A stretch of 64,000 nt of DNA from an uncultured Pseudomonadales bacterium. GTDB taxonomy: Bacteria > Patescibacteriota > Microgenomatia > UBA1400 > PJMF01. The DNA lies in the NCBI GenBank assembly GCA_964412775.1, contig CAYPPX010000002.1, positions 4,935 to 68,934 on the forward strand. The letters are read 5' to 3'. Positions 1 to 42,392 of this stretch are shown one piece after another (the first letter of the stretch is position 1; each line of letters opens with the position of its first letter). A program made the position numbers and the translations under genes. The notes under the pieces are model-generated. The model was given only the letters and a program-made list of their open reading frames with translations. It made no database searches and was not told the DNA's origin.

Positions 1-981
1 TTAGGCTCTGATGCTGTACGAGTGTGGGAAAAAGGAGCTGGTTTGGTAGGGGAGTATCCTAGTTATTTAGCGATTGATTCTAGGTCAAAAAGAATTCTAG
101 CTAGTGGCCAAGATGCTTATGAAATGAGAGGCAGAGTAGCTGCCAATGTTTCGTTGCTCAGACCTTTTCAGAAAGGGCAAATTTGGGATGAGAAAACTGC
201 TTTAGCTTTTTTAAAAGTAGTCCTTAAAGACACTTTAAAAAAGAGTTTTTTTAGTCCAACGATTTTGTTTAGTATCCCCGCTAGTCTCAATACTGCTGTT
301 GAAGAAGAAACAATTAAATTGGGTTACTCACTGGGTGCCAAGGAGGTTTTGACTGTCGCTCAACCATTAGCCGCTGCGATTGGTGCAGGGATGCCGGTGG
401 CAGATTCATCTGGTGGTTTTATTTTTCAATTGGGGGCAGGAATTAATGAAGTAGCTGTAGTTTCATTAGGAACTTTAGTTGATTTTGAAAAATCATATGA
501 AGCTGGTGATGATTTTGAACAAGCTCTTCAGGTTTATTTGCAAAAAGAAAAGCAAGTTTTACTTAGTCGTGAGACGGCCAGGAAGTTAATTCACGATTTA
601 GTTAGTGTCGATGAAGTTCATCCTGGGACAATTTTGGTTACCGGTAAAGATGAGAAAACGACTGCTCCCAAAGAGCTTCAGTTGAGTGCCAAGCAGTTAT
701 TACCTTTTGCTGAAGAGCGAATGCAAAGTTTAGTCAAACAAGTGAAAAAACTGCTTAGCAAAATCCCAGCAGAACTAACAGTGGATATTGTTGATAAAGG
801 TTTGTTGCTTGCTGGTGGTGGAGCTTTATTAACTGGTTTGGATTCATATTTAGTTCCAAAATTAGGGATTCCTGTTTCGGTAGTGGATGAACCCAAAAAA
901 GCAGTCATCAGGGGAATGGGCACAATTTTAGATCATTTGAGTGATTTTAGGCGAAGTCTTGGGTATCGAGGTGAAGCTTAA
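1..981 (+). CDS. mreB: rod shape-determining actin homolog MreB (5' end truncated by window edge)
   Basis: Reading frame is open from nt 1 (ORF track 22..981 starts at an internal GTG). Translation aligns to MreB along its length, including an LLAGGGALLTGLD adenosine-binding-like motif and the C-terminal IPVSVVDEP...RG segment. Confidence 0.85.
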   Translation, partial: LGSDAVRVWEKGAGLVGEYPSYLAIDSRSKRILASGQDAYEMRGRVAANVSLLRPFQKGQIWDEKTALAFLKVVLKDTLKKSFFSPTILFSIPASLNTAVEEETIKLGYSLGAKEVLTVAQPLAAAIGAGMPVADSSGGFIFQLGAGINEVAVVSLGTLVDFEKSYEAGDDFEQALQVYLQKEKQVLLSRETARKLIHDLVSVDEVHPGTILVTGKDEKTTAPKELQLSAKQLLPFAEERMQSLVKQVKKLLSKIPAELTVDIVDKGLLLAGGGALLTGLDSYLVPKLGIPVSVVDEPKKAVIRGMGTILDHLSDFRRSLGYRGEA

Positions 982-1056: not shown

Positions 1057-1380
1057 ATGGCTGACGAAATGAAAAAACCAGGATTGGAGGCTTTTAGTAA
1101 GGCTGTTGATTTGGCCAAGCAGTATGAAAAAGTGGAAATAGGACAAATTGATGAGTCAATGTTGAGAGAAGAGGTTGAAATTACTCCAGAAGATGAATCA
1201 TGGGTTAGTGTTCTAGTTGATCGAGTCAATCATTTGGCAGCTGAAAAAAATATTCCAGCAACTGAATTACTAAGAAGTTTGGTGGCTTCAGCAGGCGGAT
1301 TTGAACAACAAGCTGCCAAACCACCAATTCCTAGCGCTGACGATATTAGATTAGAAGGCTTACCATTAACCAATAAATAG
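1057..1380 (+). CDS. hypothetical acidic protein (107 aa)
   Basis: ORF with SD-like aaaggag 8 nt upstream of ATG; acidic composition; no family recognised. Confidence 0.4.
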   Translation: MADEMKKPGLEAFSKAVDLAKQYEKVEIGQIDESMLREEVEITPEDESWVSVLVDRVNHLAAEKNIPATELLRSLVASAGGFEQQAAKPPIPSADDIRLEGLPLTNK

Positions 1381-1391
1381 AAAGGTTTTTT

Positions 1392-1712
1392 ATGGCAGAA
1401 GCTCCCAAGCATTTACTCACTGAGTTAACTGATGAAATTGTGGCCAATCCTCAGCTTGTTGGCATAGAAGGTGAGATCAATGTGAATGAAGAAAGAGAGC
1501 CTAAAGAAGGTGATATTGATGGCGATGCTTTAGATACAATTGAAGTAAGTGATGGTTTGGCTCCAGCTGACAAAGACAGAATCGTGAAGATTATTAATTT
1601 GCTTGCAGATAAGAAAGCAAAGACTGGCCGAAACATGTTTTTTGACATCATGGCGATAATAATAGAAATGCAAGCAGAAAAAAGAACAGCTGCTGACCAA
1701 GTCGAAACCTAA
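1392..1712 (+). CDS. hypothetical acidic protein (106 aa)
   Basis: ORF 12 nt downstream of previous gene; very acidic; no family recognised. Confidence 0.4.
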   Translation: MAEAPKHLLTELTDEIVANPQLVGIEGEINVNEEREPKEGDIDGDALDTIEVSDGLAPADKDRIVKIINLLADKKAKTGRNMFFDIMAIIIEMQAEKRTAADQVET

Positions 1713-3145
1713 TCAGTTTGGACTGCCTTTTTGAACTGTTCACCACGATCTTGATAGTCTTTGAACAGGCCAAAACTAGCGCTAGCTGGACTGAGTAGAA
1801 TCACTCCTTGGCTTTCACCACTAAGCATAAAATATTGAGCCATGATGTGTTGAGCCTTACCAACGGCTTCTGGCATTGTTTTGGCAAATTCAATGACAAG
1901 GCTGTTATCAGTATCTAGATTATTTATTTCCACAGCTAACCTTTTGCCAGTCGGTTCAAATAAAACTAATCCAGCCACTTTTTTTTCTAGTATTTTTTTG
2001 GCTAATTCAGAGAAATCTTGGTGGCGTTCATAACCACCAGCTATTAAAACAACTGGTTCGGAGAAACTATCTAAAGCTCTCATGGCCGCATCAGGCATAG
2101 TAGAGAGAGAATCATCATAATAACGAATGCCTTTTTTTTGATAAAAAAACTCCAATCGATGGGGTAGAGCTTTAAAGTTTTGTAAGGCATTGCCAATCTG
2201 TTCTGCTGATAGATTAAACAGCGTTCCTACCACTACAGCAGGCATGACGTTTAATAGATTATGCTCGCCTTTGAGCGGCAGTTTCTCTATTTCTAAAATC
2301 AGTTCAGTTCTTTGTTGATTATCCTTGCGTAAAATCTGCTTATTTCTGACGAAAACAACGGCATCTGGTCCTTCTTGCAGTGAAAAACGTAGGTGTTGAC
2401 CAGCACTAAATTGGGTAATCTTGGTAGCACCAGTCATTTGCGGATTAAAAATAACAAAATCATTTTCAGTTTGATACTTACAAATAGGGATTTTGGCTTG
2501 TTGGTAACTGGCAGTATCTGGATAGTAATCGAGATGTTCGCTAGTGACATCTTGAACCACTGCAAGATGAGGACTGATGGTCATGGTTTCTAGCTGGTGG
2601 CTAGATAGTTCACAAACCACCAAAGAATCAGCATTAATTCTTTCTAAAATTGTCAAAGATGGTTGGCCAATATTACCCACTAAATGACTATCTAAGCCAT
2701 TCGTTTGCAAAACATGATGAATTATTGCTGAGGTGGTGCTTTTACCTTTGGTGCCAGTTACACCAATCGTTATTCCTGGACAGAGGCCAAAAAACAGCTG
2801 AGTGTTAGAAGTGAGTTGAGAACCGTTTTTTTTGGCTTGATCGATTGCTGGGATAGTTTGAGGAATGCCAGGGCTTTTAAAGATTAGCTGATAATTTTTT
2901 AGGTTAGTTAAATGATTGTTACCAAAGTAGTACTCAAGATGAGGATCATTTTTTAGTAGTTGTTGTTGATCTTCAGCAAATTTTTCTAGTGGTTGTTTGT
3001 CTGCCACGGCTAGTTTTTTATTGGGAAACTTGGTTCTCAAAAAATGGTAAGTTGACCAACCTTCTCGTCCCATTCCTAGAATCAGGATAGAGTTTTTTTC
3101 TAAGTTAGCCAAAACTTGTTGTTGATCGATCATAGTTTCTTTCAA
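1709..3145 (-). CDS. murD: UDP-N-acetylmuramoyl-L-alanine--D-glutamate ligase
   Basis: N-terminal Rossmann-like ILILGMGREG; Mur ligase P-loop GVTGTKGKSTT; overall Mur ligase architecture, 478 aa. Confidence 0.8.
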   Translation of the reverse strand: MKETMIDQQQVLANLEKNSILILGMGREGWSTYHFLRTKFPNKKLAVADKQPLEKFAEDQQQLLKNDPHLEYYFGNNHLTNLKNYQLIFKSPGIPQTIPAIDQAKKNGSQLTSNTQLFFGLCPGITIGVTGTKGKSTTSAIIHHVLQTNGLDSHLVGNIGQPSLTILERINADSLVVCELSSHQLETMTISPHLAVVQDVTSEHLDYYPDTASYQQAKIPICKYQTENDFVIFNPQMTGATKITQFSAGQHLRFSLQEGPDAVVFVRNKQILRKDNQQRTELILEIEKLPLKGEHNLLNVMPAVVVGTLFNLSAEQIGNALQNFKALPHRLEFFYQKKGIRYYDDSLSTMPDAAMRALDSFSEPVVLIAGGYERHQDFSELAKKILEKKVAGLVLFEPTGKRLAVEINNLDTDNSLVIEFAKTMPEAVGKAQHIMAQYFMLSGESQGVILLSPASASFGLFKDYQDRGEQFKKAVQTD

Positions 3146-4569
3146 AAATAGCTATTTTTAGCTTGACAAATTTGTTGAGCTTCTTGTTGTAGCAACTCGA
3201 CCAAGCTGTGATCCAAGTGATGCTGCTTATTCCAAAAACATAGTAGCATCTTAGTAGTTTGTTCTAGGTTGGGGACTTGAGAAAGAATTTCTTGATTAAT
3301 TTTTTCTAAAACCACTGGTAGTGGTTTATTTGGATGGTTTTTTTGCCATTTTTTAATGCTTAAGTAAAAAGCTGCTTGAGTTTCTTCATGAGTGCCAACA
3401 CACTCAAATGGTTTATTAGCATCAAGGCCCATTAATTCTTGAGCTGTTTGGTTGAGATTAGGTTTGGTAAAAAGGTTTTCAGAAAAAATTTCTGTAATTA
3501 GTTTTTGTTCGTCAATAAATGGGTAGAGGACAGCAAAAACAAATAAACATTTAGGACATTCTCCACACCACTGGTTTAGTTGTTGTCCTCTGTTACAGCT
3601 GCGAAAAATCGACTGAAATTGTTCATTTTTGCTAAATAGAGCTGCTATTTGTAGTTCGGTAAGAGGTCTGAGAAACGACAAATATTCAGGGGCTGATCCG
3701 AGATATTTTTTTACATAAGTTCTGAATTTATTTTCGAAGGCAAATGATTTAGAGTATTGGTGATTAACCATTATTCCCAGGTAAGGCACGTTACCTTCAT
3801 TAGCCGAGAATTCATTAGCTAATAAAATATTTTTATGACCACTCAGTAAAGCAACTAAGCTACTCTCAAAAGCCAATCTAGCGCTAAAAGGGGTATGGCC
3901 ATTTAAGTATCCTTGTTTGTTGAGTTCCAAGAGTTCTGGAGCAAAAGTTCTTTTTATTTCAATAATTTTAACTTGAGTTTCACTGGCTATTTTATGGGCA
4001 GCCGGTGATTGAGGATAGCTGAGTAGTATTTCGTAGGGAAGCTTATATTTGCTAAGTAAATTTATGACTAAAGCAGAATCTTTTCCGCCACCTACTGGGA
4101 CAAGAGCTTTATTTTTTGCTTGAAAAGAAAAGCTGGGTAGTTTTTGGGGAGTAAGAGTGTTTTGATTAGTAAATTTAACGAAGTTTGGTTGAGTGAAATC
4201 AATGTTATTGGTGTAAAAGTATTCACCCATGCCATCAAGCAGTAATCCTTGCCACCAAGAGAGTTGCTCTGGAGAAAGTGGCAGTGGCTGAATAACTATT
4301 TCTGGTGAGGCTGCTACTTTCCAATAGCTGAAGAGCTCAATCATCCCCAGATTAAAAACCCAGTGGCTAATGATTTCTTGAGGTATATTGGCAAAGGTTT
4401 GTTTATCTAGGTTGGTGATGGTGATTTGGGGTTGAAAATTAATGGCTGGTTCCAACAAAAAATCAAAAGAAATAGTCAATGTCTGGTTACTAAATTGCCA
4501 GTCAAAGCTTTGGTAGATGAAGCGGGGGTGTTGTTTTCTTAATGATTCGAGAGTTTTCTCGGTTGGCAT
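3142..4569 (-). CDS. PP-loop (N-type ATP pyrophosphatase) superfamily protein with C-terminal Cys cluster; function unknown
   Basis: Internal VPVGGGKDSAL resembles the SGGxDS PP-loop. C-terminal C...CGECPKC resembles QueC/amidotransferase-like zinc-binding motifs. Start overlaps murD stop (ATGA), suggesting translational coupling. Confidence 0.6.
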   Translation of the reverse strand: MPTEKTLESLRKQHPRFIYQSFDWQFSNQTLTISFDFLLEPAINFQPQITITNLDKQTFANIPQEIISHWVFNLGMIELFSYWKVAASPEIVIQPLPLSPEQLSWWQGLLLDGMGEYFYTNNIDFTQPNFVKFTNQNTLTPQKLPSFSFQAKNKALVPVGGGKDSALVINLLSKYKLPYEILLSYPQSPAAHKIASETQVKIIEIKRTFAPELLELNKQGYLNGHTPFSARLAFESSLVALLSGHKNILLANEFSANEGNVPYLGIMVNHQYSKSFAFENKFRTYVKKYLGSAPEYLSFLRPLTELQIAALFSKNEQFQSIFRSCNRGQQLNQWCGECPKCLFVFAVLYPFIDEQKLITEIFSENLFTKPNLNQTAQELMGLDANKPFECVGTHEETQAAFYLSIKKWQKNHPNKPLPVVLEKINQEILSQVPNLEQTTKMLLCFWNKQHHLDHSLVELLQQEAQQICQAKNSYF

Positions 4570-21540: not shown

Positions 21541-21616
21541 GCCTTTGTAGCTCAGGTGGCAGAGCGCAGTCTTGGTAAGACTGAGGTCTCGGGTTCGAAC
21601 CCCGACAAAGGCTCCT
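21541..21616 (+). tRNA. tRNA-Thr (anticodon GGT)
   Basis: Cloverleaf with acceptor GCCTTTG/CAAAGGC, anticodon loop TTGGTAA, T-arm GGGTTCGAACCCC. Confidence 0.9.
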
Positions 21617-21624
21617 AAAATTAT

Positions 21625-21707
21625 GCCAAGGTACTGAAGTGGTCAAACAGGGCAGTCTGTAAAACTGCTGGCTTTCGCCTTCGTAGGTTCGAATCCTTCC
21701 CTTGGCA
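21625..21707 (+). tRNA. tRNA-Tyr (anticodon GTA), type II with long variable arm
   Basis: Acceptor GCCAAGG/CCTTGGC, anticodon loop CTGTAAA, variable stem-loop GGC-TTTC-GCC, T-loop TTCGAAT. Confidence 0.85.
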
Positions 21708-21758
21708 CATTATGCTTAGAAATCGCTTTTAGCGATTTTTTAGTGTAATAGATCTACC

Positions 21759-21831
21759 GCCAACTTAGCTCAGTTGGTAGAGCAACGGTTTTGTAAACCG
21801 TAGGTCGTGGGTTCAAGTCCCACAGTTGGCT
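21759..21831 (+). tRNA. tRNA-Thr (anticodon TGT)
   Basis: Acceptor GCCAACT/AGTTGGC, anticodon loop TTTGTAA, T-arm GTGGGTTCAAGTCCCAC. Confidence 0.9.
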
Positions 21832-23709: not shown

Positions 23710-23783
23710 AGGGCTATGATGTAGCTGGTAGCATGAAGGTCTCCAAAACCTTTCGCCGGGGTTCAAATCCTCGTGGCCCTGCA
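23710..23783 (+). tRNA. tRNA-Trp (anticodon CCA)
   Basis: Acceptor AGGGCTA/TGGCCCT (one G:U), anticodon stem AAGGT/ACCTT with loop CTCCAAA, T-loop TTCAAAT. Confidence 0.85.
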
Positions 23784-34587: not shown

Positions 34588-35235
34588 TTAAATTTGATAA
34601 CCAGCTAATTCTACCAGATAAGTGGCTATTTTTTTTGTTGGGATAGTCAAAATATCTTGGCTGGTGCGCTGTTGGAGCTGGTTCTCAATTTCTTTACCAG
34701 CTTGTTTGTTAGTTGTCAGCAATTTTTCATCAGCCCAAGCCCCACGATGTTGTTTATAGCGTTGGTGGATATCATCCAGTCTGTCGTTTAAAGAAGTGAT
34801 CCCAATTGGAGTAACCCTCAGATCAGCATATTCACAGATTTTTTCTTCCCAAGATTTATTGAGCGTGGCAGTAAGATTAGTAGCATCCATACTATTAATA
34901 AGCTCAAGTATTAATTGATTAGCTGTTACTTCTTGAGCCATTTTATAGGTGGCAAGATGAGCGTCTGGACCATATTTTTCAACCATTTTTCTTTGAATAA
35001 AATGCCATTCTTCACTATTCAAAACTGGGTCATAAATGGTGGCTCCTGGAGAAAGGTCAAATTTGATCAAGTTGCCTAAATCATGTATTAATAATGCAGC
35101 GACAGTCTCGTGAGTTTTGATTGGTTCACCGACCCAGTGGTCACAAATATATTTACCGACTCCAGCAACTGTGTACATGTGTTGTTGTAAGCCTGGTGGA
35201 ATCTGGAAATAATCGAAGATTTGTTGAGTGGTCAT
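34588..35235 (-). CDS. possible HD-domain phosphohydrolase
   Basis: H...HD pattern (TVAALLIHDLGN); weak. Confidence 0.35.
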   Translation of the reverse strand: MTTQQIFDYFQIPPGLQQHMYTVAGVGKYICDHWVGEPIKTHETVAALLIHDLGNLIKFDLSPGATIYDPVLNSEEWHFIQRKMVEKYGPDAHLATYKMAQEVTANQLILELINSMDATNLTATLNKSWEEKICEYADLRVTPIGITSLNDRLDDIHQRYKQHRGAWADEKLLTTNKQAGKEIENQLQQRTSQDILTIPTKKIATYLVELAGYQI

Positions 35236-37319
35236 GGTTTAGTCGCTCCAGCAGTTGCTTCTACTTGGTGATATTTTTGCCAGAAACTCGGGTCATCAAC
35301 TGCTAAGTGTCTCAGAATAAAGCTAAATTGGTCAAGTGATTGTGTGGGTTGATGAGTTTCTGCATAGAGCATGGCTAATTCATCTCGAGCTTTAAGATAG
35401 TTGGGTTTGAGGAAAACAGCTTTTTCCAGTGATTGTTGAGCCTCCTCAAACTGTTGCATTTCTTTTTGGACTAAACCCAAGTTATAGTAAAGTTTAGCGT
35501 CATTAGGTGACAAAGCGATAGCTGATTTTAGGGTGTGTTCGGCATCTAGATAATATTTAGCATCAAGCTGAGCTAAGATCAGATAAACTCTAGCTCTAGT
35601 CTTATAAAAATTAAGATGTCTGGGGTTAAGTGATAAGGCATAGTTGGAGTTATCAATGGCAGCCTTAGTCAGTTTATCGGTCATTTCCGAGTTATTTAAA
35701 GTGTCATATTGGAAAGCCAGAATACTGTAAACGTCAGCAAATTCATCATAAAAAACTGCTTCTTTGGGTGATAAAGTAATCGCTTTTTCTAAAAGTTTGG
35801 CAGCCTCATAGTAGAGTGATTTTTCTTGTTTTTCTTTACTTTGTTTGTAGTAGCGATCAGCTAACCAAAAATTGCCGATTGAACTAAGTGTTTTTAGGCC
35901 AAAACCAGCTACGACTAAGATTAATAAATATTGCCACCATAACAGGGGTTGGTTGGTTGGTGAAGAAAGTTTCGTCACTGATGTTGATTTGGTTTTATTC
36001 TTGTTGTTTGGTTTGTTGAGTTGGTTGTTGTCTAAAGTGATTATTGGTAAGGTGAAGATGAGGAGGTTGGTAACAGCAATCGAGAAACCAAAAAAGTGAA
36101 CAGCTGATAAACCGATTAAACTAGCCAATACCACCCAACTAGAGTTGGCCCATGATTTATATTTTTTGCCGTTTTGCCACAAGTAGGCGATAGTGCCACC
36201 CAAAAAAACTAGGTAAGTTACTAGGCCAACAATGCCTGTTTCAGCCAAGTAATTTAGAAATTCATTGTGAGCTTTGTTGTAAAGAAAGTCCCACTCAGAG
36301 ACTAAGTTATGTTCAATCGGTCGGTCTAAGTAAAAACTATAAGCAAAAGTAGCTGGCCCAGAGCCAAAAATTGGGTAACGTTGCCAGACTTTAATTGCAC
36401 CGTCCCAAACAATCGATCTAATAGAAAAAGAATCAGTACCTTGAGAAAGATCAAGGGAGTTCAAATCGTTGACAGTTCTCTGGTGAAGAAGAAAACTCCC
36501 TCCGATACTACTCAGTATAACCAAAGTTACTATCAAAGGCAAAACTAGTCGATGTTGCAAGGTTATTTGGATTGTTGGTGATTTTTTATAAATGAATAAC
36601 AAAAATAGAGTCGCCAAAACTAGAATTAAGCCACCCAAGCCAGACTTTGATTTGGTAAACAAGATGGCAAGTGTAGCCAATACTAAGATGATTTCCCAAA
36701 TAAATTTTAAATTTTTTTGGTACTGATCTCGTAGAAAGAAAATGATTGGGATGGAGCCAATGATGTAACTGGCGAGCCAGTTGGGTTGACCAAAAGTGCC
36801 AAAAATTCTGGCTTGAACATCTTGTTTCCAACAAGCAGTGTTAAACTCTTGTTTCATAATGATACAACTGGGAGAGATGCCAAAGTGTTCTGGCAAGGCA
36901 TATAAGATGGTCAAAACCAGGCCCAAACCATGACTAATAAAGAATGTTAGAAGTTTCTTTCTAGGTACATTGTTCCATAGGCCAAGAGCTAAAACCGAGA
37001 AAGCCAAAGATGATAACAAACCACCATTGAGTCGACTATAGTAACCCCAGATGGAGGTTGGTAAATGAATGGAAAAAATTGTTGAGAGCATTTGGCCAGC
37101 TAGAAAGATTAAATTAAGAGTAACTAGGGGATGTTGTTGCCAGTAAAGTTTTTTTTCAGTAATTGATCTGATTAGCCATAATGAACCAATTAAGGTTGCC
37201 ATTACATAAATAAATAGCATTTTGTTTAGTTCAAACAATTCGCTGTGACCCCAGAAAAATAATAGAGGAGAAGTTAGGAACAATGCATGGTAAAGGAAAC
37301 TAATCAGTTGGACGAACAT
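35232..37319 (-). CDS. O-antigen ligase/polymerase-like polytopic membrane protein fused to C-terminal TPR repeats
   Basis: ~12 TM N-terminal half with a Wzy_C-like loop, then a TM-rich linker and repeated TPR-like helical pairs in the C-terminal ~200 aa. Confidence 0.6.
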   Translation of the reverse strand: MFVQLISFLYHALFLTSPLLFFWGHSELFELNKMLFIYVMATLIGSLWLIRSITEKKLYWQQHPLVTLNLIFLAGQMLSTIFSIHLPTSIWGYYSRLNGGLLSSLAFSVLALGLWNNVPRKKLLTFFISHGLGLVLTILYALPEHFGISPSCIIMKQEFNTACWKQDVQARIFGTFGQPNWLASYIIGSIPIIFFLRDQYQKNLKFIWEIILVLATLAILFTKSKSGLGGLILVLATLFLLFIYKKSPTIQITLQHRLVLPLIVTLVILSSIGGSFLLHQRTVNDLNSLDLSQGTDSFSIRSIVWDGAIKVWQRYPIFGSGPATFAYSFYLDRPIEHNLVSEWDFLYNKAHNEFLNYLAETGIVGLVTYLVFLGGTIAYLWQNGKKYKSWANSSWVVLASLIGLSAVHFFGFSIAVTNLLIFTLPIITLDNNQLNKPNNKNKTKSTSVTKLSSPTNQPLLWWQYLLILVVAGFGLKTLSSIGNFWLADRYYKQSKEKQEKSLYYEAAKLLEKAITLSPKEAVFYDEFADVYSILAFQYDTLNNSEMTDKLTKAAIDNSNYALSLNPRHLNFYKTRARVYLILAQLDAKYYLDAEHTLKSAIALSPNDAKLYYNLGLVQKEMQQFEEAQQSLEKAVFLKPNYLKARDELAMLYAETHQPTQSLDQFSFILRHLAVDDPSFWQKYHQVEATAGATKP

Positions 37320-37413: not shown

Positions 37414-38439
37414 ATGTCAGATCCTGCCTTAAATAATCAAAACCAATCATATGTTGATTCTTATGTACCACCAACGAGTGGTCAAATGAGTGCTAATTCA
37501 GCTTCAGTTACTTCAATGCCGGTTGCCTCAACCAATGATCCGTTAAAGAAACTAGAAGAGTTAGTGGCTGAGTTTGAAAATAAAAAAGATGAAAAAAAAG
37601 CTGACCAGCTTAAAGATCTTAAATCACTAGAAGCTGCTGCTTCTAAGCCAACGGGTGGTTCCGACTCAATGTCTAAACCAGATACTACTCAAGCCACAGA
37701 TCCTTTAGCTGAATTAGAAAAAGCTTTAGATGAATATGAGAAGAAGTATAAAGATCGAGTGGCTGCAGCAAACCCAACAGTCAGTCATAGTGGAGATAAA
37801 GCGATTGGACTTGGTCAAGCATTAGACCAGGTTAAAGCTAAAGCACCGGTTCTACCAGTTGGTCCAACTTCTGATTCTACAGATAAAGTTTCTTTGAAGG
37901 ATTTAGAAAAAGCAGTAACTGAGTTTGAACAACAAACAACTGATCAAGATAAACTTGTTACTCCGGTTCTAGAGCAAACTCCAAGCAAAGTGAGTGCTAA
38001 TGATACCGATGAATCAATTGATGAGCAAAACATTTTTGATTTGCTGGGGGTTAGTGATGCTTCAGATCAAGAAAAAGAGGCTTTCTTGGACGAACTCCAA
38101 CAAGCTCTTTGGGAGGACTTTTTAGAAAAAGACTTAATTCTTTTGGTTAGTGAGCAAGAAATGTTGGAGTTGGATAAAATTAAAACCAGTACCGGATTAA
38201 GTGAAGAACAAAGACAAGCTCAATTAATTGCTAAAATTGAGCAGTTAGTGCCAGATATTGAAGAAATCATGCTTGAAAAAGCTCTAGAACTAAAAGAAGA
38301 TATGGTTTTAGAGAGACTTCAAGGAATTAGAGAAAGTTTCCAACAAGCCAACCAAAATGAAGCTCAACTAGATATCGTTGCTGATCACTTCAAAAATGGT
38401 CGCTGGAAAACTGGCACTCAACTTTTGAACTCACTCTAA
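37414..38439 (+). CDS. hypothetical acidic coiled-coil protein (341 aa)
   Basis: ORF; Glu/Asp/Lys-rich, predicted helical; no family recognised. Confidence 0.45.
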   Translation: MSDPALNNQNQSYVDSYVPPTSGQMSANSASVTSMPVASTNDPLKKLEELVAEFENKKDEKKADQLKDLKSLEAAASKPTGGSDSMSKPDTTQATDPLAELEKALDEYEKKYKDRVAAANPTVSHSGDKAIGLGQALDQVKAKAPVLPVGPTSDSTDKVSLKDLEKAVTEFEQQTTDQDKLVTPVLEQTPSKVSANDTDESIDEQNIFDLLGVSDASDQEKEAFLDELQQALWEDFLEKDLILLVSEQEMLELDKIKTSTGLSEEQRQAQLIAKIEQLVPDIEEIMLEKALELKEDMVLERLQGIRESFQQANQNEAQLDIVADHFKNGRWKTGTQLLNSL

Positions 38440-38483: not shown

Positions 38484-39356
38484 ATGAAAAGGTTTAGTGT
38501 TACTAATTTATTTACCCCAAAAGCTACGACTCATAATCAATCACTATTTTGGTTGAGTGGCCAACAACTTAAATTGGTGACTGGTAATAAACGTAGTGTT
38601 CACCAGCTAGCTGACAACAGTGGATTTTTGGCTAATAAAGTTGCTGATTTTTCCTTAGCTTTAGAGACTTTGAGAAATGTTTGTCAGACAAGTGGCTTAA
38701 AATTTATTAACTTGTGGTTTAGAAACAAGGCGATTGTTTTTATACCGACAGATAGCTCACCTTTGGAAAAAAAGCTTTTTCAGCAATTATTTAATCAGTT
38801 GGGGTTTAACCAACTAGAACTGAGAAAATATGAGACTGCTTTTAGAGCCTTTTTAGCCAAACAAGACTATGAAAAAGGTTGTTTTGTTTATGTTGGTCAG
38901 GAAGTAAGTGAAATTGGAGTTTTTGCCAGTAACGATCAACAGAGTTTTAATATCTACTACTCTCTTCAAGAAGCAATTGAAGAAACAATTTATTTTTTTA
39001 GAGAAAAACATCTTTTAGAGTTGTCAAACAAAGTTGCTTACAAACTTTACCAAGAGTTGGGTTTACAGGGAGAAAAGTTTTCTTTAGTAGTCCGAGGGCG
39101 CAATAGTCGTAACAAAGAGTTGCAAACAGCTAGTTTCATGTTTAAAGATGTTGAACCACTTTATTCTTTTTTACAGAAAAAAATCAGTCAAGAAATCGAT
39201 TCAGTTAGACAAAATAATTTATTTAAGCAGTTTGTTCCAGATAAGTGGGTAGTGTTGGGTGATGATTTTTTTCAAGCTACCCTCGAAAAAATGGGTGAAA
39301 AAACTCTTCAGCTAAAGTCTGAGTTCGATCTAATGCAAGGTATTGAATGGTTATGA
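38484..39356 (+). CDS. divergent MreB/actin-like protein with degenerate nucleotide-binding motifs
   Basis: Aligns with MreB blocks. IVFIPTDSSPLEKKLFQQLFNQLGF matches VIAVPSGITEVEKRAVREAAEQAG. CFVYVGQEVSEIGVF matches MVVDIGGGTTEVAVI. KWVVLGDDFFQATLEKMGE matches MVLTGGGALLRNLDRLLME. The phosphate-1/2 and adenosine motifs are not conserved. Confidence 0.45.
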   Translation: MKRFSVTNLFTPKATTHNQSLFWLSGQQLKLVTGNKRSVHQLADNSGFLANKVADFSLALETLRNVCQTSGLKFINLWFRNKAIVFIPTDSSPLEKKLFQQLFNQLGFNQLELRKYETAFRAFLAKQDYEKGCFVYVGQEVSEIGVFASNDQQSFNIYYSLQEAIEETIYFFREKHLLELSNKVAYKLYQELGLQGEKFSLVVRGRNSRNKELQTASFMFKDVEPLYSFLQKKISQEIDSVRQNNLFKQFVPDKWVVLGDDFFQATLEKMGEKTLQLKSEFDLMQGIEWL

Positions 39357-40126
39357 AAAAACGCTTGTTTTTACTAGCTAGCTGGGAGCAGATTACCATC
39401 ATTGGGGTAGTATTATTGATTATGGAGTTGTTGGGCTTAGTTAGGCCGGTTCAAGGTTTTTTATTTAATAAGATATTTGTTCCTGGTCAAAATTTGGTAG
39501 TAGGTATTACTAATCAGTCATTAACTAACCTGTATGCTGTTAGAAAAGTTTTTAATTCTGCTGTTCACATTCGTGATTTAGAAGCAAGACTAGCTGAATC
39601 GACAGCAGCTTTAACAGAGCTACAAACACTCAAAAAAGAAAACCAAGAACTAAGGTTTTTATTGGAAAATACTGATCGACCCCAGACTAGAACTTATCTG
39701 ACTAGACCAGTGGTTTCATTAACCAAACCAGCAATTGCTGGTGGTCAAGATTTACAATTGGCAGTTGGTTCATTAGTGCTGAGTAGAGAAACCTTGTTAG
39801 GTCAATTGAGCAAGATTAACCAATATGAATCTCAGGTGACTTTACTTCACGAAAAGGAGGCTACACCTATTTTAGCCAAGACTGAATCTGGAGTAATGGG
39901 CATTATTAGAGGTGATGGTAAAAAAATATTATTAACTGAAGTGGCCAAAACTGATCAACTAGTTGTGGGTGAAAAAGTTTATAGTTTGGGTCAGAATCAG
40001 GTTGAGCAGGGGGTATTGATTGGTCAAATTTCTTTTATCAATCAAGATTTGACTAGTTCAGTACAAACAGCGGTGGTTGATCAGTACGTATCTTTTTTTG
40101 AAACTGCAGTTGTGGAGGTGAGATGA
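39347..40126 (+). CDS. mreC: rod shape-determining protein MreC
   Basis: N-terminal TM, coiled-coil (LQTLKKENQELRFLLEN), beta-rich C-terminal domain; followed by mreD and PBP2. Confidence 0.7.
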   Translation: MVMKKRLFLLASWEQITIIGVVLLIMELLGLVRPVQGFLFNKIFVPGQNLVVGITNQSLTNLYAVRKVFNSAVHIRDLEARLAESTAALTELQTLKKENQELRFLLENTDRPQTRTYLTRPVVSLTKPAIAGGQDLQLAVGSLVLSRETLLGQLSKINQYESQVTLLHEKEATPILAKTESGVMGIIRGDGKKILLTEVAKTDQLVVGEKVYSLGQNQVEQGVLIGQISFINQDLTSSVQTAVVDQYVSFFETAVVEVR

Positions 40127-40557
40127 TGAAATGGCGCAGTATTGGTCGATTGAGTTTACACTTACTATTATTATTAGGCTTATTGATCATTGAGTCGACC
40201 ATGGGTCTGCCTTGGTTAAGTATTTTTTTTATTCAACAAATTATTATTCGATCTTCAACTCTTTCTGCTTGGGTTATCACCATTAGTCTAAGTTTCTTGC
40301 TCAGTACAGCTTTTGCCAATTCTTTGTTGCTGGTCTTTGGTTTGTTAGTTTTTCTTTGGTTATACCAAAACATCCGTAGTGTGAGCTGGTGGCTAGTTTA
40401 TTTGCTAACGGTATTAGTTATTGGTTACCCCAGTTTGGTTCATTTTTCATGGCTGGTTGTTGGCCAAAGTTTCTTGAGTTTAGGTTTATTATTGATTTAT
40501 ACCAAGGGGATTATTTGGTGGCCAAAAATATGGAAAAACAACGAAAAAATAGTTTAG
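40123..40557 (+). CDS. mreD: rod shape-determining protein MreD
   Basis: 144 aa, 4-5 TM helices, ATGATG overlap with mreC stop, immediately upstream of PBP2. Confidence 0.55.
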   Translation: MMKWRSIGRLSLHLLLLLGLLIIESTMGLPWLSIFFIQQIIIRSSTLSAWVITISLSFLLSTAFANSLLLVFGLLVFLWLYQNIRSVSWWLVYLLTVLVIGYPSLVHFSWLVVGQSFLSLGLLLIYTKGIIWWPKIWKNNEKIV

Positions 40558-42392
40558 TCAGCATAATTTTTTTGAGTTTGTTGTTAGCTTTAAGTTTACT
40601 AGCTTTTAGAGTGATTGATTTGCAAGCTTTTCAAGGTCAGTGGTTTGCTGATATTTCTTACCAGAATCGGCTTTTTAGAACTGAGATTCCAGCAGAACGG
40701 GGAGTTTTTTTAGATCGTTATGGAGATTTATTAGTAGTTAATCAACGGGCTTATCACCAAATTTCCGAACCCACTGCTCTTTATCCTCAGACTCAACCAA
40801 TTACCAGAGATCAAGCTTTGGAGTTAACTATTACTCAACCTTTTTCAGTTAATTATTCTTTACAACGTCAGTATTTGAGGCCATTTTCAATGGCTCACGT
40901 TTTGGGTTATGTGACTGGGGTGACAGCCGAGGATTTGCAACAAGATAACCAATATAAATTGACTGATTCAGTGGGGAGAGCTGGACTAGAATCTTACTTT
41001 AATGATTTAGTTAAAGGTAGAAAAGGTTTCCGAGAGTATGAAATCAATGCTTTGGGCAAAAAACTAACCGAAGCTAAATTTGAACCACCAGTTCAAGGCA
41101 GAAACCTTCAGACATCTTTGGACCCATATTTATCAACAGTTGCCTGGCGGGCAATGGGTGATAAAACTGGTTCAGTAGTTATTCTCGATCCAGAAACAGG
41201 CAAGGTTTTAGCTTTAGTTAGTACACCAGCTTTTGATAGCAACCTTTTTAGTCCTTCAAACATAGCTACTGAACAAGAAACCAAACTCAGTGAGTTGAGG
41301 TTTGCTTTAGCAGATGAGAAAAGATTATTTTTTAATCGGTCAGTGCATGGGACTTATCCTCCAGGCTCGATTTTTAAACTAGTCACAGCGCTAGCTGGTT
41401 TGGAATCAGGGGCTTTTGATACTACCACCGAGGTTGATGACCAAGGTATTTTGGAAGTAGGCGAATATCGTTATGCTAACTGGTATTACACTCAGTATGG
41501 TCGCACTGAAGGTCTAATTTCTTTGGTGAAGGCAATTGCCAGAAGTAATGATACTTATTTTTACAAAGCTGCCGAGTTGTTGGGTGTTGATAATTTAGTT
41601 AAACAAGCTGAGTTAATGGGGTTTGGTCAGCCAACTGGCATTGAGCTAGCTGGTGAAAGAGCTGGTTTAGTCCCCAATCCAAGTTGGAAAGAAAAAACTT
41701 TGGGTGAAAAGTGGTTTTTGGGAAATACTTTTCATTTAGGCATTGGTCAAGGTGATTTGTTGGTTACGCCTTTGCAGCAGGCTCAAATGTTGCAGGTTTT
41801 TGCTAATCATGGACATTTGTGTAAACCAAGTTTACTGGCTGATTCACAAGCTGTTAATTGTAGTTCGATTGGGGTTAGTGAGGCTCATTTACTAGCGGTT
41901 GAACAGGGTATGATTGAGGCTTGTTCAACTGGTGGCACAGCTTATCCATTTTTCTCTTGGAATCAACAGCAAACTAGCCGGTTGGAGCAAAACTTGCCAG
42001 CTAATAAGCTAATTGATAATGGAGTAGTAGCTTGTAAAACTGGGACTGCTGAGTTTGGGGGTGAAGATGAACGTGGTTATCGTAAAACTCATGCTTGGTT
42101 TGGGATGACAGTTGGTGGTTTAGATCAATTATTGGCTCCAGAACTCCAAGTTTTGGGGGTTAACACTGAGAGTAAGTCAGTAGCAGTGGATGTCACTGCT
42201 GAGGCTGATCGAGATTTACAACTAGAGAGACAAACTTGGTTGAAAAAAGTTCAGGCTCATGGCTTTCCTGATAGCTTAGTTATAGTGGTGTTGGTGGAAA
42301 GTGATGAAGAACAACCTTATCGAGAAGGTTCTAGAGACGCTGCTCCAGTGGCCCAGACGATTTGGCAGTGGTTACTAGGGGAAAATAATTAA
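40530..42392 (+). CDS. mrdA: penicillin-binding protein 2 (elongasome transpeptidase)
   Basis: Start moved to internal ATG (MEKQRKN) since ORF-track start 40389 lies inside mreD. TM anchor, dimerisation domain and transpeptidase SxxK (GSIFKLVTA). Confidence 0.8.
   Translation: MEKQRKNSLVSIIFLSLLLALSLLAFRVIDLQAFQGQWFADISYQNRLFRTEIPAERGVFLDRYGDLLVVNQRAYHQISEPTALYPQTQPITRDQALELTITQPFSVNYSLQRQYLRPFSMAHVLGYVTGVTAEDLQQDNQYKLTDSVGRAGLESYFNDLVKGRKGFREYEINALGKKLTEAKFEPPVQGRNLQTSLDPYLSTVAWRAMGDKTGSVVILDPETGKVLALVSTPAFDSNLFSPSNIATEQETKLSELRFALADEKRLFFNRSVHGTYPPGSIFKLVTALAGLESGAFDTTTEVDDQGILEVGEYRYANWYYTQYGRTEGLISLVKAIARSNDTYFYKAAELLGVDNLVKQAELMGFGQPTGIELAGERAGLVPNPSWKEKTLGEKWFLGNTFHLGIGQGDLLVTPLQQAQMLQVFANHGHLCKPSLLADSQAVNCSSIGVSEAHLLAVEQGMIEACSTGGTAYPFFSWNQQQTSRLEQNLPANKLIDNGVVACKTGTAEFGGEDERGYRKTHAWFGMTVGGLDQLLAPELQVLGVNTESKSVAVDVTAEADRDLQLERQTWLKKVQAHGFPDSLVIVVLVESDEEQPYREGSRDAAPVAQTIWQWLLGENN

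Follow-up and report, generated by a model that had tools for sequence, protein, structure and literature searches.

The ATPase cycle of the actin homologue MreB is generally regarded as integral to the organisation of the Rod complex (elongasome), the setting in which the locus described here has to be read. Patescibacteria are ultra-small bacteria, mostly uncultured, and hence their cell biology is scarcely known. An analogy for an actin-like fold retained without its enzymatic activity is offered by the cytoplasmic domain of GspL/EpsL and by TsaB/YeaZ, which have acetate and sugar kinase/Hsc70/actin (ASKHA) folds that have lost ATP binding and whose place is that of a structural partner to an active machine. 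The subject of this report is a 290-aa open reading frame (ORF) starting at position 38484 of a 64,000-nt stretch of contig CAYPPX010000002.1 (the window, whose numbering is used throughout), referred to below as the MreB-like gene. Selection has kept this derivative of MreB in front of mreC and the PBP2 gene despite the loss of every nucleotide-site motif, and the partner MreB clade is also without the catalytic residues.

Among the closest described systems, Caulobacter crescentus MreB uses E140 and T167 to position the attacking water (PMC4051119), and the Glu134Ala mutant of Spiroplasma MreB5 is deficient in ATPase activity yet retains assembly (PMC9195046). Spiroplasma MreB3 (7e1c) and MreB5 E134A differ from the 290-aa protein in that their nucleotide-binding loops are retained and nucleotide is bound; moreover, MreB3 and MreB5 function in cells that have no wall and lack MreC and PBP2, unlike the protein described here. 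Two clades of MreB, both present in some species, were reported from the Candidate Phyla Radiation (CPR) by Takahashi et al. 2020 (bioRxiv 10.1101/2020.05.13.095042). That two-clade pattern fits the pair formed by an operon-linked MreB and the second MreB of the window (MreB1), to which the two clades may correspond; the BLAST collection used in that work stopped at E 2e-63 and would exclude a protein as divergent as the 290-aa form, and motif loss, truncation and operon linkage were undescribed for the CPR proteins. The open-access literature, where absence is not proof, yielded no account of an operon-linked MreB that is truncated and motif-free. Set against MreB/Mbl (PF06723; C. crescentus 4cze, E. 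coli), the 290-aa protein belongs with MreB by homology, fold and operon position, but is shorter, lies under the Pfam threshold and is without the nucleotide-site motifs: we class it as a pseudo-ATPase offshoot of MreB.

An MreB fold beneath the Pfam threshold

The ORF was present as first described, with ATG at 38484 and stop at 39354–39356. As a single sequence its match to Pfam MreB_Mbl was weak (E 4.6e-4, 19.6 bits, under the 27-bit gathering cut-off), and the NCBIfam model MreBH gave 17.8 bits against a cut-off of 515, while several orthologues carry a precomputed PF06723 match. Eleven orthologue clusters were found, 92–47% identical and all of 289–291 aa, and an alignment of 12 sequences (A1) formed the basis of the profile comparisons. 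Searched against the PDB, the A1 profile matched MreB chains only (top match C. crescentus 4cze, E 8.8e-8), every sequence-profile match with E < 0.1 being MreB. Aligned by hhalign with an MreB alignment, in which the E. coli sequence was taken from NC_000913.3, it gave a probability of 99.5% (E 3.8e-22), with residues 43–243 corresponding to E. coli MreB 71–276.

Structure prediction agreed with these matches. The AlphaFold2 (AF2) model (mean predicted local distance difference test, pLDDT, 84.3; predicted template modelling score, pTM, 0.78; residues 1–17 disordered) showed the strand and helix succession of the actin fold, and its top 25 Foldseek matches in the PDB were all MreB/Mbl (E 4e-18 to 1e-12, template modelling score ~0.7), with 269 of the ~273 ordered residues superposed on MreB. 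The original prediction, that the ORF encodes a protein of actin fold related to MreB, is thereby borne out, and both profile and fold place the protein nearer to MreB than to the other families of actin-like proteins. Convergence on an MreB-like form from another actin-fold family (FtsA, PilM, ParM, Hsp70 or a sugar kinase) is highly improbable: beyond the uniform PDB profile (E < 0.1) and Foldseek matches, the best non-family proteins among 1.84 billion representatives were MreB-like and encoded upstream of mreC, and this origin was rejected on the combined grounds of profile matches, fold matches and synteny.

The protein is about 50 residues shorter than MreB in total. Approximately 30 residues are absent between the N-terminal strands and helix 56–69, in a part of the alignment where the register is ambiguous, and the C-terminus is about 20 residues shorter. 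The deleted N-terminal segment is most likely the small IB subdomain.

Replacement of the nucleotide-site motifs

Every motif of the nucleotide site was replaced. The catalytic Glu (E. coli E143, equivalent to C. crescentus E140) is Tyr116 in the 290-aa protein. At phosphate-2, E. coli VVDIGGGTTE corresponds to FVYVGQEVSE, so that D165 is replaced by Tyr136 and T170 (C. crescentus T167) by Val, and the adenosine motif LTGGGALL reads VLGDDFFQ; the alignments thus confirm both the substitution of YVGQEVSE at phosphate-2 and the replacement of the adenosine motif that had been read from the single sequence. A D-x-G-[ST] phosphate-1 loop was found nowhere in the N-terminal 45 residues, in any register. 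MAFFT, global hhalign and the strand pattern of the AF2 model placed residues 1–42 in three different registers, all without a phosphate-1 motif, and local hhalign left these residues unaligned. Loss of phosphate-1 as originally predicted therefore stands, but the specific correspondence given for it, DLGTANT to WLSGQQL, is only one of three possible registers and is insecure.

These replacements are a property of the family rather than of one sequence, being common to 16 family sequences and reaching members at 39% identity (tblastn). A1 shows no variation at W23, Y116, Y136, G138, E143, G259, D260 or F262. Among the distant members P0012–P0015 (276–292 aa), Tyr occupied the catalytic Glu position in 3/4 and the phosphate-2 Asp position in 4/4, and Gly-Asp recurred in the adenosine loop. 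Former motif sites were also more constrained than the remainder of the protein, with 14/30 invariant, compared with 58/260 elsewhere (Fisher p = 0.005; 72 invariant positions in total among the 12 closest sequences). Because these positions are under above-average constraint, the pattern suggests that the former cleft, marked by the invariant W23, Y116, Y136, G259-D260 and F262, may have been packed shut, locking one conformation, or else reused as an interaction surface.

A remodelled cleft might instead bind a ligand, whether a non-canonical nucleotide or, for example, a cell-wall precursor, making the protein a sensor or regulator of PBP2/MreC. The elevated conservation of the former motif sites would be in keeping with such a function, as would the presence among them of the polar or acidic residues E143, D260, D261 and Q139 beside aromatics. 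Equal conservation would, however, be predicted of a packed core or a protein–protein interface, bulkier residues now occupy each of the three Gly-rich loops (phosphate and adenosine), and Pfam and NCBIfam recognise no known ligand-binding motif in the protein. We consider ligand binding rather unlikely.

Purifying selection and constant length

Rates of non-synonymous and synonymous substitution (dN/dS) were calculated by the Nei–Gojobori method between the window genes and those of a 92%-identical relative (L011):

MreB-like protein: 0.037 (dS 1.12)
MreC: 0.025
PBP2: 0.036
TopA: 0.033
144-aa protein in the mreD position: 0.087
Protein X, encoded upstream of the MreB-like gene: 0.14

The family is nearly fixed in size, at 289–291 aa over the range of identities between 92% and 39%, a single representative of 276 aa being the exception. 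A Pfam score beneath the gathering cut-off, combined with the disappearance of every catalytic motif, is what might be expected of a decaying mreB pseudogene or of an annotation artefact. Against this, the dN/dS of 0.037 is on a par with that of essential neighbours, the length is fixed, 72 residues do not vary in the set of the 12 closest sequences, AF2 gives a confident fold, and both synteny and gene overlaps are kept. The pseudogene explanation was rejected on dN/dS and constant length, and we attach next to no probability to it. The checks attached to the original prediction came out in its favour: the motif loss is conserved in 16 family sequences, the gene is under purifying selection, the fold matches are highly significant, and no relative within the 290-aa clade carried an intact MreB at the locus.

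An old operon-linked lineage

The MreB-like gene lies within a compact cluster, flanked upstream by a divergent gene for a membrane protein. These genes are as follows:

35232–37319, minus strand: Wzy_C/TPR membrane protein, 695 aa (Pfam Wzy_C 6.3e-20, and C-terminal TPR matches)
37414–38439, plus strand: acidic protein X, 341 aa, ending 44 nt upstream of the MreB-like gene
38484–39356, plus strand: MreB-like gene, the subject of this report, 290 aa, MreB-derived actin fold
39347–40126, plus strand: mreC (Pfam MreC, PF04085, E 3.2e-13, 50.1 bits against a cut-off of 28)
40123–40557, plus strand: 144-aa hydrophobic protein in the mreD position (no Pfam or NCBIfam match)
40530–42392, plus strand: PBP2-type class B penicillin-binding protein, 620 aa (Pfam Transpeptidase 1.4e-51, PBP_dimer 2.4e-21)

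Start and stop codons overlap at three junctions, namely MreB-like/MreC, MreC/144-aa protein and 144-aa protein/PBP2. The mreC start is either ATG 39347, giving a 10-nt overlap with the end of the MreB-like gene, or ATG 39353, giving one of 4 nt (ATGA); mreC in turn overlaps the 144-aa ORF by 4 nt, and that ORF overlaps the PBP2 gene. PBP2 probably begins at ATG 40530 and not at the longest-ORF start, GTG 40389, since the resulting 620 aa resembles its orthologues, called at 618–632 aa. Identification of mreC and PBP2 agrees with the original prediction: NCBIfam MreC models matched the mreC product, with scores under their cut-offs, and the top NCBIfam model for PBP2 was TIGR03423 pbp2_mrdA (E 9.5e-119, 397.6 bits, under the 455-bit equivalog cut-off). 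The operon probably begins with X. No terminator-like site was found in the gaps from X to PBP2 by a consensus scan for promoters and terminators, although over 37.2–46.5 kb that scan was uninformative, yielding fewer matches than shuffled sequence. Downstream of PBP2 lie DprA and then TopA, as in all relatives examined.

This arrangement is conserved in relatives at as little as 39% identity. The order Wzy_C/TPR (divergent), X, MreB-like, MreC, small membrane protein, PBP2, DprA, TopA was found in 9/9 non-redundant loci, in a tblastn synteny table that covered all fetched loci and included four GTDB genomes labelled Paceibacterota, Pacebacteria or Patescibacteria. Occupation of the mreB slot of an elongasome operon, overlapping mreC and with PBP2 downstream, was thus correctly recognised from the window alone.

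The nature of the occupant is another matter. The original prediction regarded it as a paralogue standing where mreB normally sits, but an exhaustive profile search of the 1.84 billion representatives returned 7 family clusters only (E ≤ 3e-19), followed from E 2.5e-10 by MreB-like proteins of ~340 aa, and the best three of these (P0018, P0019 and P0020) filled an identical slot in 3/3 cases (Wzy_C/TPR divergent, then X, MreB-like, MreC, a protein of ~157 aa, PBP2 and DprA). The distant 290-aa-type member P0012 also occupies it. By hhalign, the 290-aa family scored 135 (E 6e-19) with the ~340-aa group, in an alignment reaching the C-terminus, compared with 49 (E 3e-6) with the MreB1 clade. In neighbour-joining (NJ) bootstraps the 290-aa family was monophyletic in 60/60 trees and MreB1 in 60/60, and the family joined the operon-linked group in 45/60. 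Since its nearest non-family relatives fill the same slot and retain some motifs, comparison of sequence and gene order identifies the 290-aa protein as a positional orthologue and not a newcomer: it is, on this evidence, the truncated and fully degenerate end of an old, Patescibacteria-wide, operon-linked MreB lineage, and no displacing paralogue.

The ~340-aa operon-linked proteins (P0018–P0029, P0039 and P0040) resemble the 290-aa form in slot, in having the closest profile kinship, and in being without the catalytic Glu, the position being Lys, Ser or Gly in 10/11 (mostly Lys). They differ in that the phosphate-1 loop, the region deleted from the 290-aa form and a strongly amphipathic N-terminus are all present. 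The phosphate-1 pattern D-x-G-S-x-x-T-R was found in 11/11 and the phosphate-2 Asp in 7/11, and the Gly-rich adenosine loop is retained; the ~340-aa forms therefore probably still bind nucleotide. They provide graded intermediates along which the passage from cytomotive ATPase to pseudoenzyme could be traced. The nucleotide site probably underwent stepwise decay along the operon-linked lineage: the ~340-aa forms are without the catalytic Glu, and the 290-aa clade (a Paceibacterota/Pacebacteria-type subclade of Patescibacteria) has shed all motifs together with ~30 N-terminal residues and the C-terminal tail.

A second MreB in the window

Two MreB-like ORFs, MreB1 and the 290-aa gene, are the only ones in the window, and they lie 37.5 kb apart. 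MreB1 and the genes beside it are as follows:

1–981, plus strand: MreB1 (Pfam MreB_Mbl 3.3e-69, 233.7 bits)
1057–1380, plus strand: small acidic ORF, 107 aa, no family match
1392–1712, plus strand: small acidic ORF, 106 aa, no family match
1709–3145, minus strand: MurD-like ligase
3142–4569, minus strand: 475-aa ORF adjoining the MurD-like gene, no Pfam match at 1e-5

That a second MreB is followed by two small acidic ORFs was seen correctly at the outset. In a relative (L017), the same place holds three small ORFs (120, 104 and 103 aa) and then, on the opposite strand, MurD and a MurL-like gene; the L017 orthologue of the 475-aa ORF has Pfam MurL_N and MurL_epimerase_C domains.

The MreB1 ORF is cut by the window edge and lacks ~14 N-terminal residues, its homologues being of 339–357 aa. 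It had been taken for the canonical, or true, mreB. A strong family member it is, as the Pfam score of 233.7 bits attests, but its active site is non-canonical. Compared with Geobacillus MreB (7zpt), it has QPLAAAIGAG for EPFAAAIGA and FQLGAGINE for VDIGGGTTE, so that the catalytic Glu, the catalytic Thr and the phosphate-2 Asp correspond to Gln, Ile and Gln, respectively. Throughout the MreB1 clade (46 members, 93–40% identical) the catalytic Glu has given way to Gln or, rarely, to Ser or Ala; Ile, Val or another residue other than Thr stands at the catalytic Thr, and Gln, His, Asn or Val at the phosphate-2 Asp. The clade retains phosphate-1 and, in the adenosine loop, the first two Gly. MreB1 is accordingly likely, from its residues, to bind nucleotide, but without the canonical hydrolytic residues, and the pattern suggests a hydrolysis-deficient, nucleotide-binding MreB across the phylum Patescibacteria. 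A contrast between one dead and one live copy is too simple, because the MreB1 clade is itself without the catalytic Glu, the catalytic Thr and the phosphate-2 Asp.

The pairing very probably recurs in one further, divergent genome. For both the pseudo-MreB representative P0006 and the MreB1-type representative P0049, the longest contig listed measures 609,747 bp, and a DNA pattern scan found a 38-nt exact stretch of the P0049 MreB1 gene on contig Ga0233437_1000010 (609,747 bp). It is the agreement of this contig with the longest contigs listed for both representatives that indicates their co-occurrence. Identity between the window proteins and this pair was 62% for the 290-aa form and 84% for MreB1, the 290-aa family being the faster-evolving.

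A proposed nucleotide-independent subunit of the Rod complex

Homology, fold, motif replacement, conservation, purifying selection, synteny, gene overlaps and co-occurrence with a second MreB were all observed; a role as scaffold, adaptor or static filament may be inferred from the position of the gene and the loss of its motifs. We consider it reasonably probable that the 290-aa protein is a selection-maintained, MreB-derived pseudo-ATPase, orthologous to the operon-linked lineage and acting as a nucleotide-independent subunit of the Rod complex. The protein would neither bind nor hydrolyse ATP, would be made together with MreC and PBP2, and would serve as a cytoplasmic structural subunit of the complex. 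It could dock the MreC/PBP2 membrane complex onto MreB1 polymers, as an adaptor or as a heteropolymer partner, or could itself form a static platform.

Several points weigh against this interpretation. Missing canonical motifs are not strict proof of lost binding of nucleotide or of other ligands, and the scaffold or adaptor role is read solely from where the gene lies and which motifs it has lost. Ambiguity in the N-terminal register extends to the identity of the deleted element. Grouping with the operon-linked lineage by NJ is moderate (75%), with the 290-aa family on a long branch. Signals of polymerisation are mixed: the residue equivalent to S284 is Lys, Arg, Thr, Glu or Ala in the family, and that equivalent to V121 (an inter-protofilament contact) is hydrophobic. 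The N-terminal amphipathic helix, clear in the ~340-aa forms, is weak in the 290-aa protein (hydrophobic moment, muH, 0.24), making membrane binding uncertain; with so weak a signal, such a helix is not claimed as its membrane anchor. Finally, a third and fully canonical MreB may be encoded elsewhere in a genome of which 64 kb is visible.

It is also conceivable that the protein is still filament-forming, and that the Rod complex is guided by nucleotide-free static filaments, with MreB1 serving some other purpose. This alternative is a live one because the ATPase-deficient Spiroplasma MreB5 E134A still assembles. In E. coli MreB, however, S284 makes an intra-protofilament contact and the S284D mutant is non-functional (PMC4051119), and the equivalent residue is not conserved in the 290-aa family and is often charged. 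The ~30 missing N-terminal residues, most likely IB, would moreover remove half of the longitudinal contact, and the family is evolving faster than MreB1 (in the P0006/P0049 comparison above). Static filaments of this kind are on these grounds unlikely, though less so than a ligand-binding sensor, and a structural subunit independent of nucleotide remains the preferred interpretation.

Were that interpretation true, the locus would provide a natural case of separation of function, showing which functions of MreB, such as elongasome binding and membrane positioning, survive without nucleotide. More tentatively, elongation in Patescibacteria might run with two MreB lineages, neither canonically hydrolytic; in one subclade, the nucleotide-free 290-aa ‘pseudo-actin’ would be an obligatory, stoichiometric subunit with MreC/PBP2, possibly as a heteropolymer with MreB1, a filament end-binder or a membrane adaptor substituting for RodZ, and would form with X a Rod system independent of ATP hydrolysis. 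This wider proposal is a possibility that we hold at well under even chances.

Neighbouring proteins

X lies directly upstream of the operon-linked MreB in every locus examined. Alignment of 8 syntenic orthologues showed a conserved N-terminal SYVDSYxPP, then an acidic linker that varies and is of low complexity, and a C-terminal domain of 140 aa that is all-helical and conserved. The AF2 model of X was helical (pLDDT 91.6) and found no fold match in the PDB (best E 4), and Pfam at E ≤ 1 returned nothing except a weak DUF6317 match. All 323 homologues of X are annotated as ‘hypothetical’, two of them being flagged PF18908/DUF5663. From its position, the widely conserved X is a probable candidate for a new elongasome-associated factor in Patescibacteria.

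The small membrane protein between MreC and PBP2 had been called MreD. With MreD the 144-aa protein shares position, size and hydrophobicity only: 7 orthologues were without a match to Pfam MreD (PF04093), even with E allowed up to 10, and the hhalign comparison with E. coli MreD had a probability of 0.1%. It is syntenic in the loci of the 290-aa family (tblastn), and a called gene of 146–158 aa fills the slot in L012, L015 and L016. The name is thus unsupported except by position, and either MreD has here diverged to an extreme degree or another protein has taken its place.

No RodA/SEDS partner for PBP2 was recognised beside the operon or among the 20 larger window ORFs scanned. The Wzy_C (O-antigen-ligase-like) polytopic protein, divergent from the operon, is syntenic in every relative, including the ~340-aa loci, so that its pairing with the operon is conserved. 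Rfam matches in the window comprised four tRNA genes only, at 21541–21831 and 23710–23781 on the plus strand. One locus among the relatives (L005, CAYSQA010000001.1) carries a Patescibacteria operon with 62–89% amino-acid identity to the window genes under the title ‘uncultured Pseudomonadales bacterium’, a taxonomic label that is probably wrong; the label Vitreimonas sp. on one X homologue is similarly suspect.

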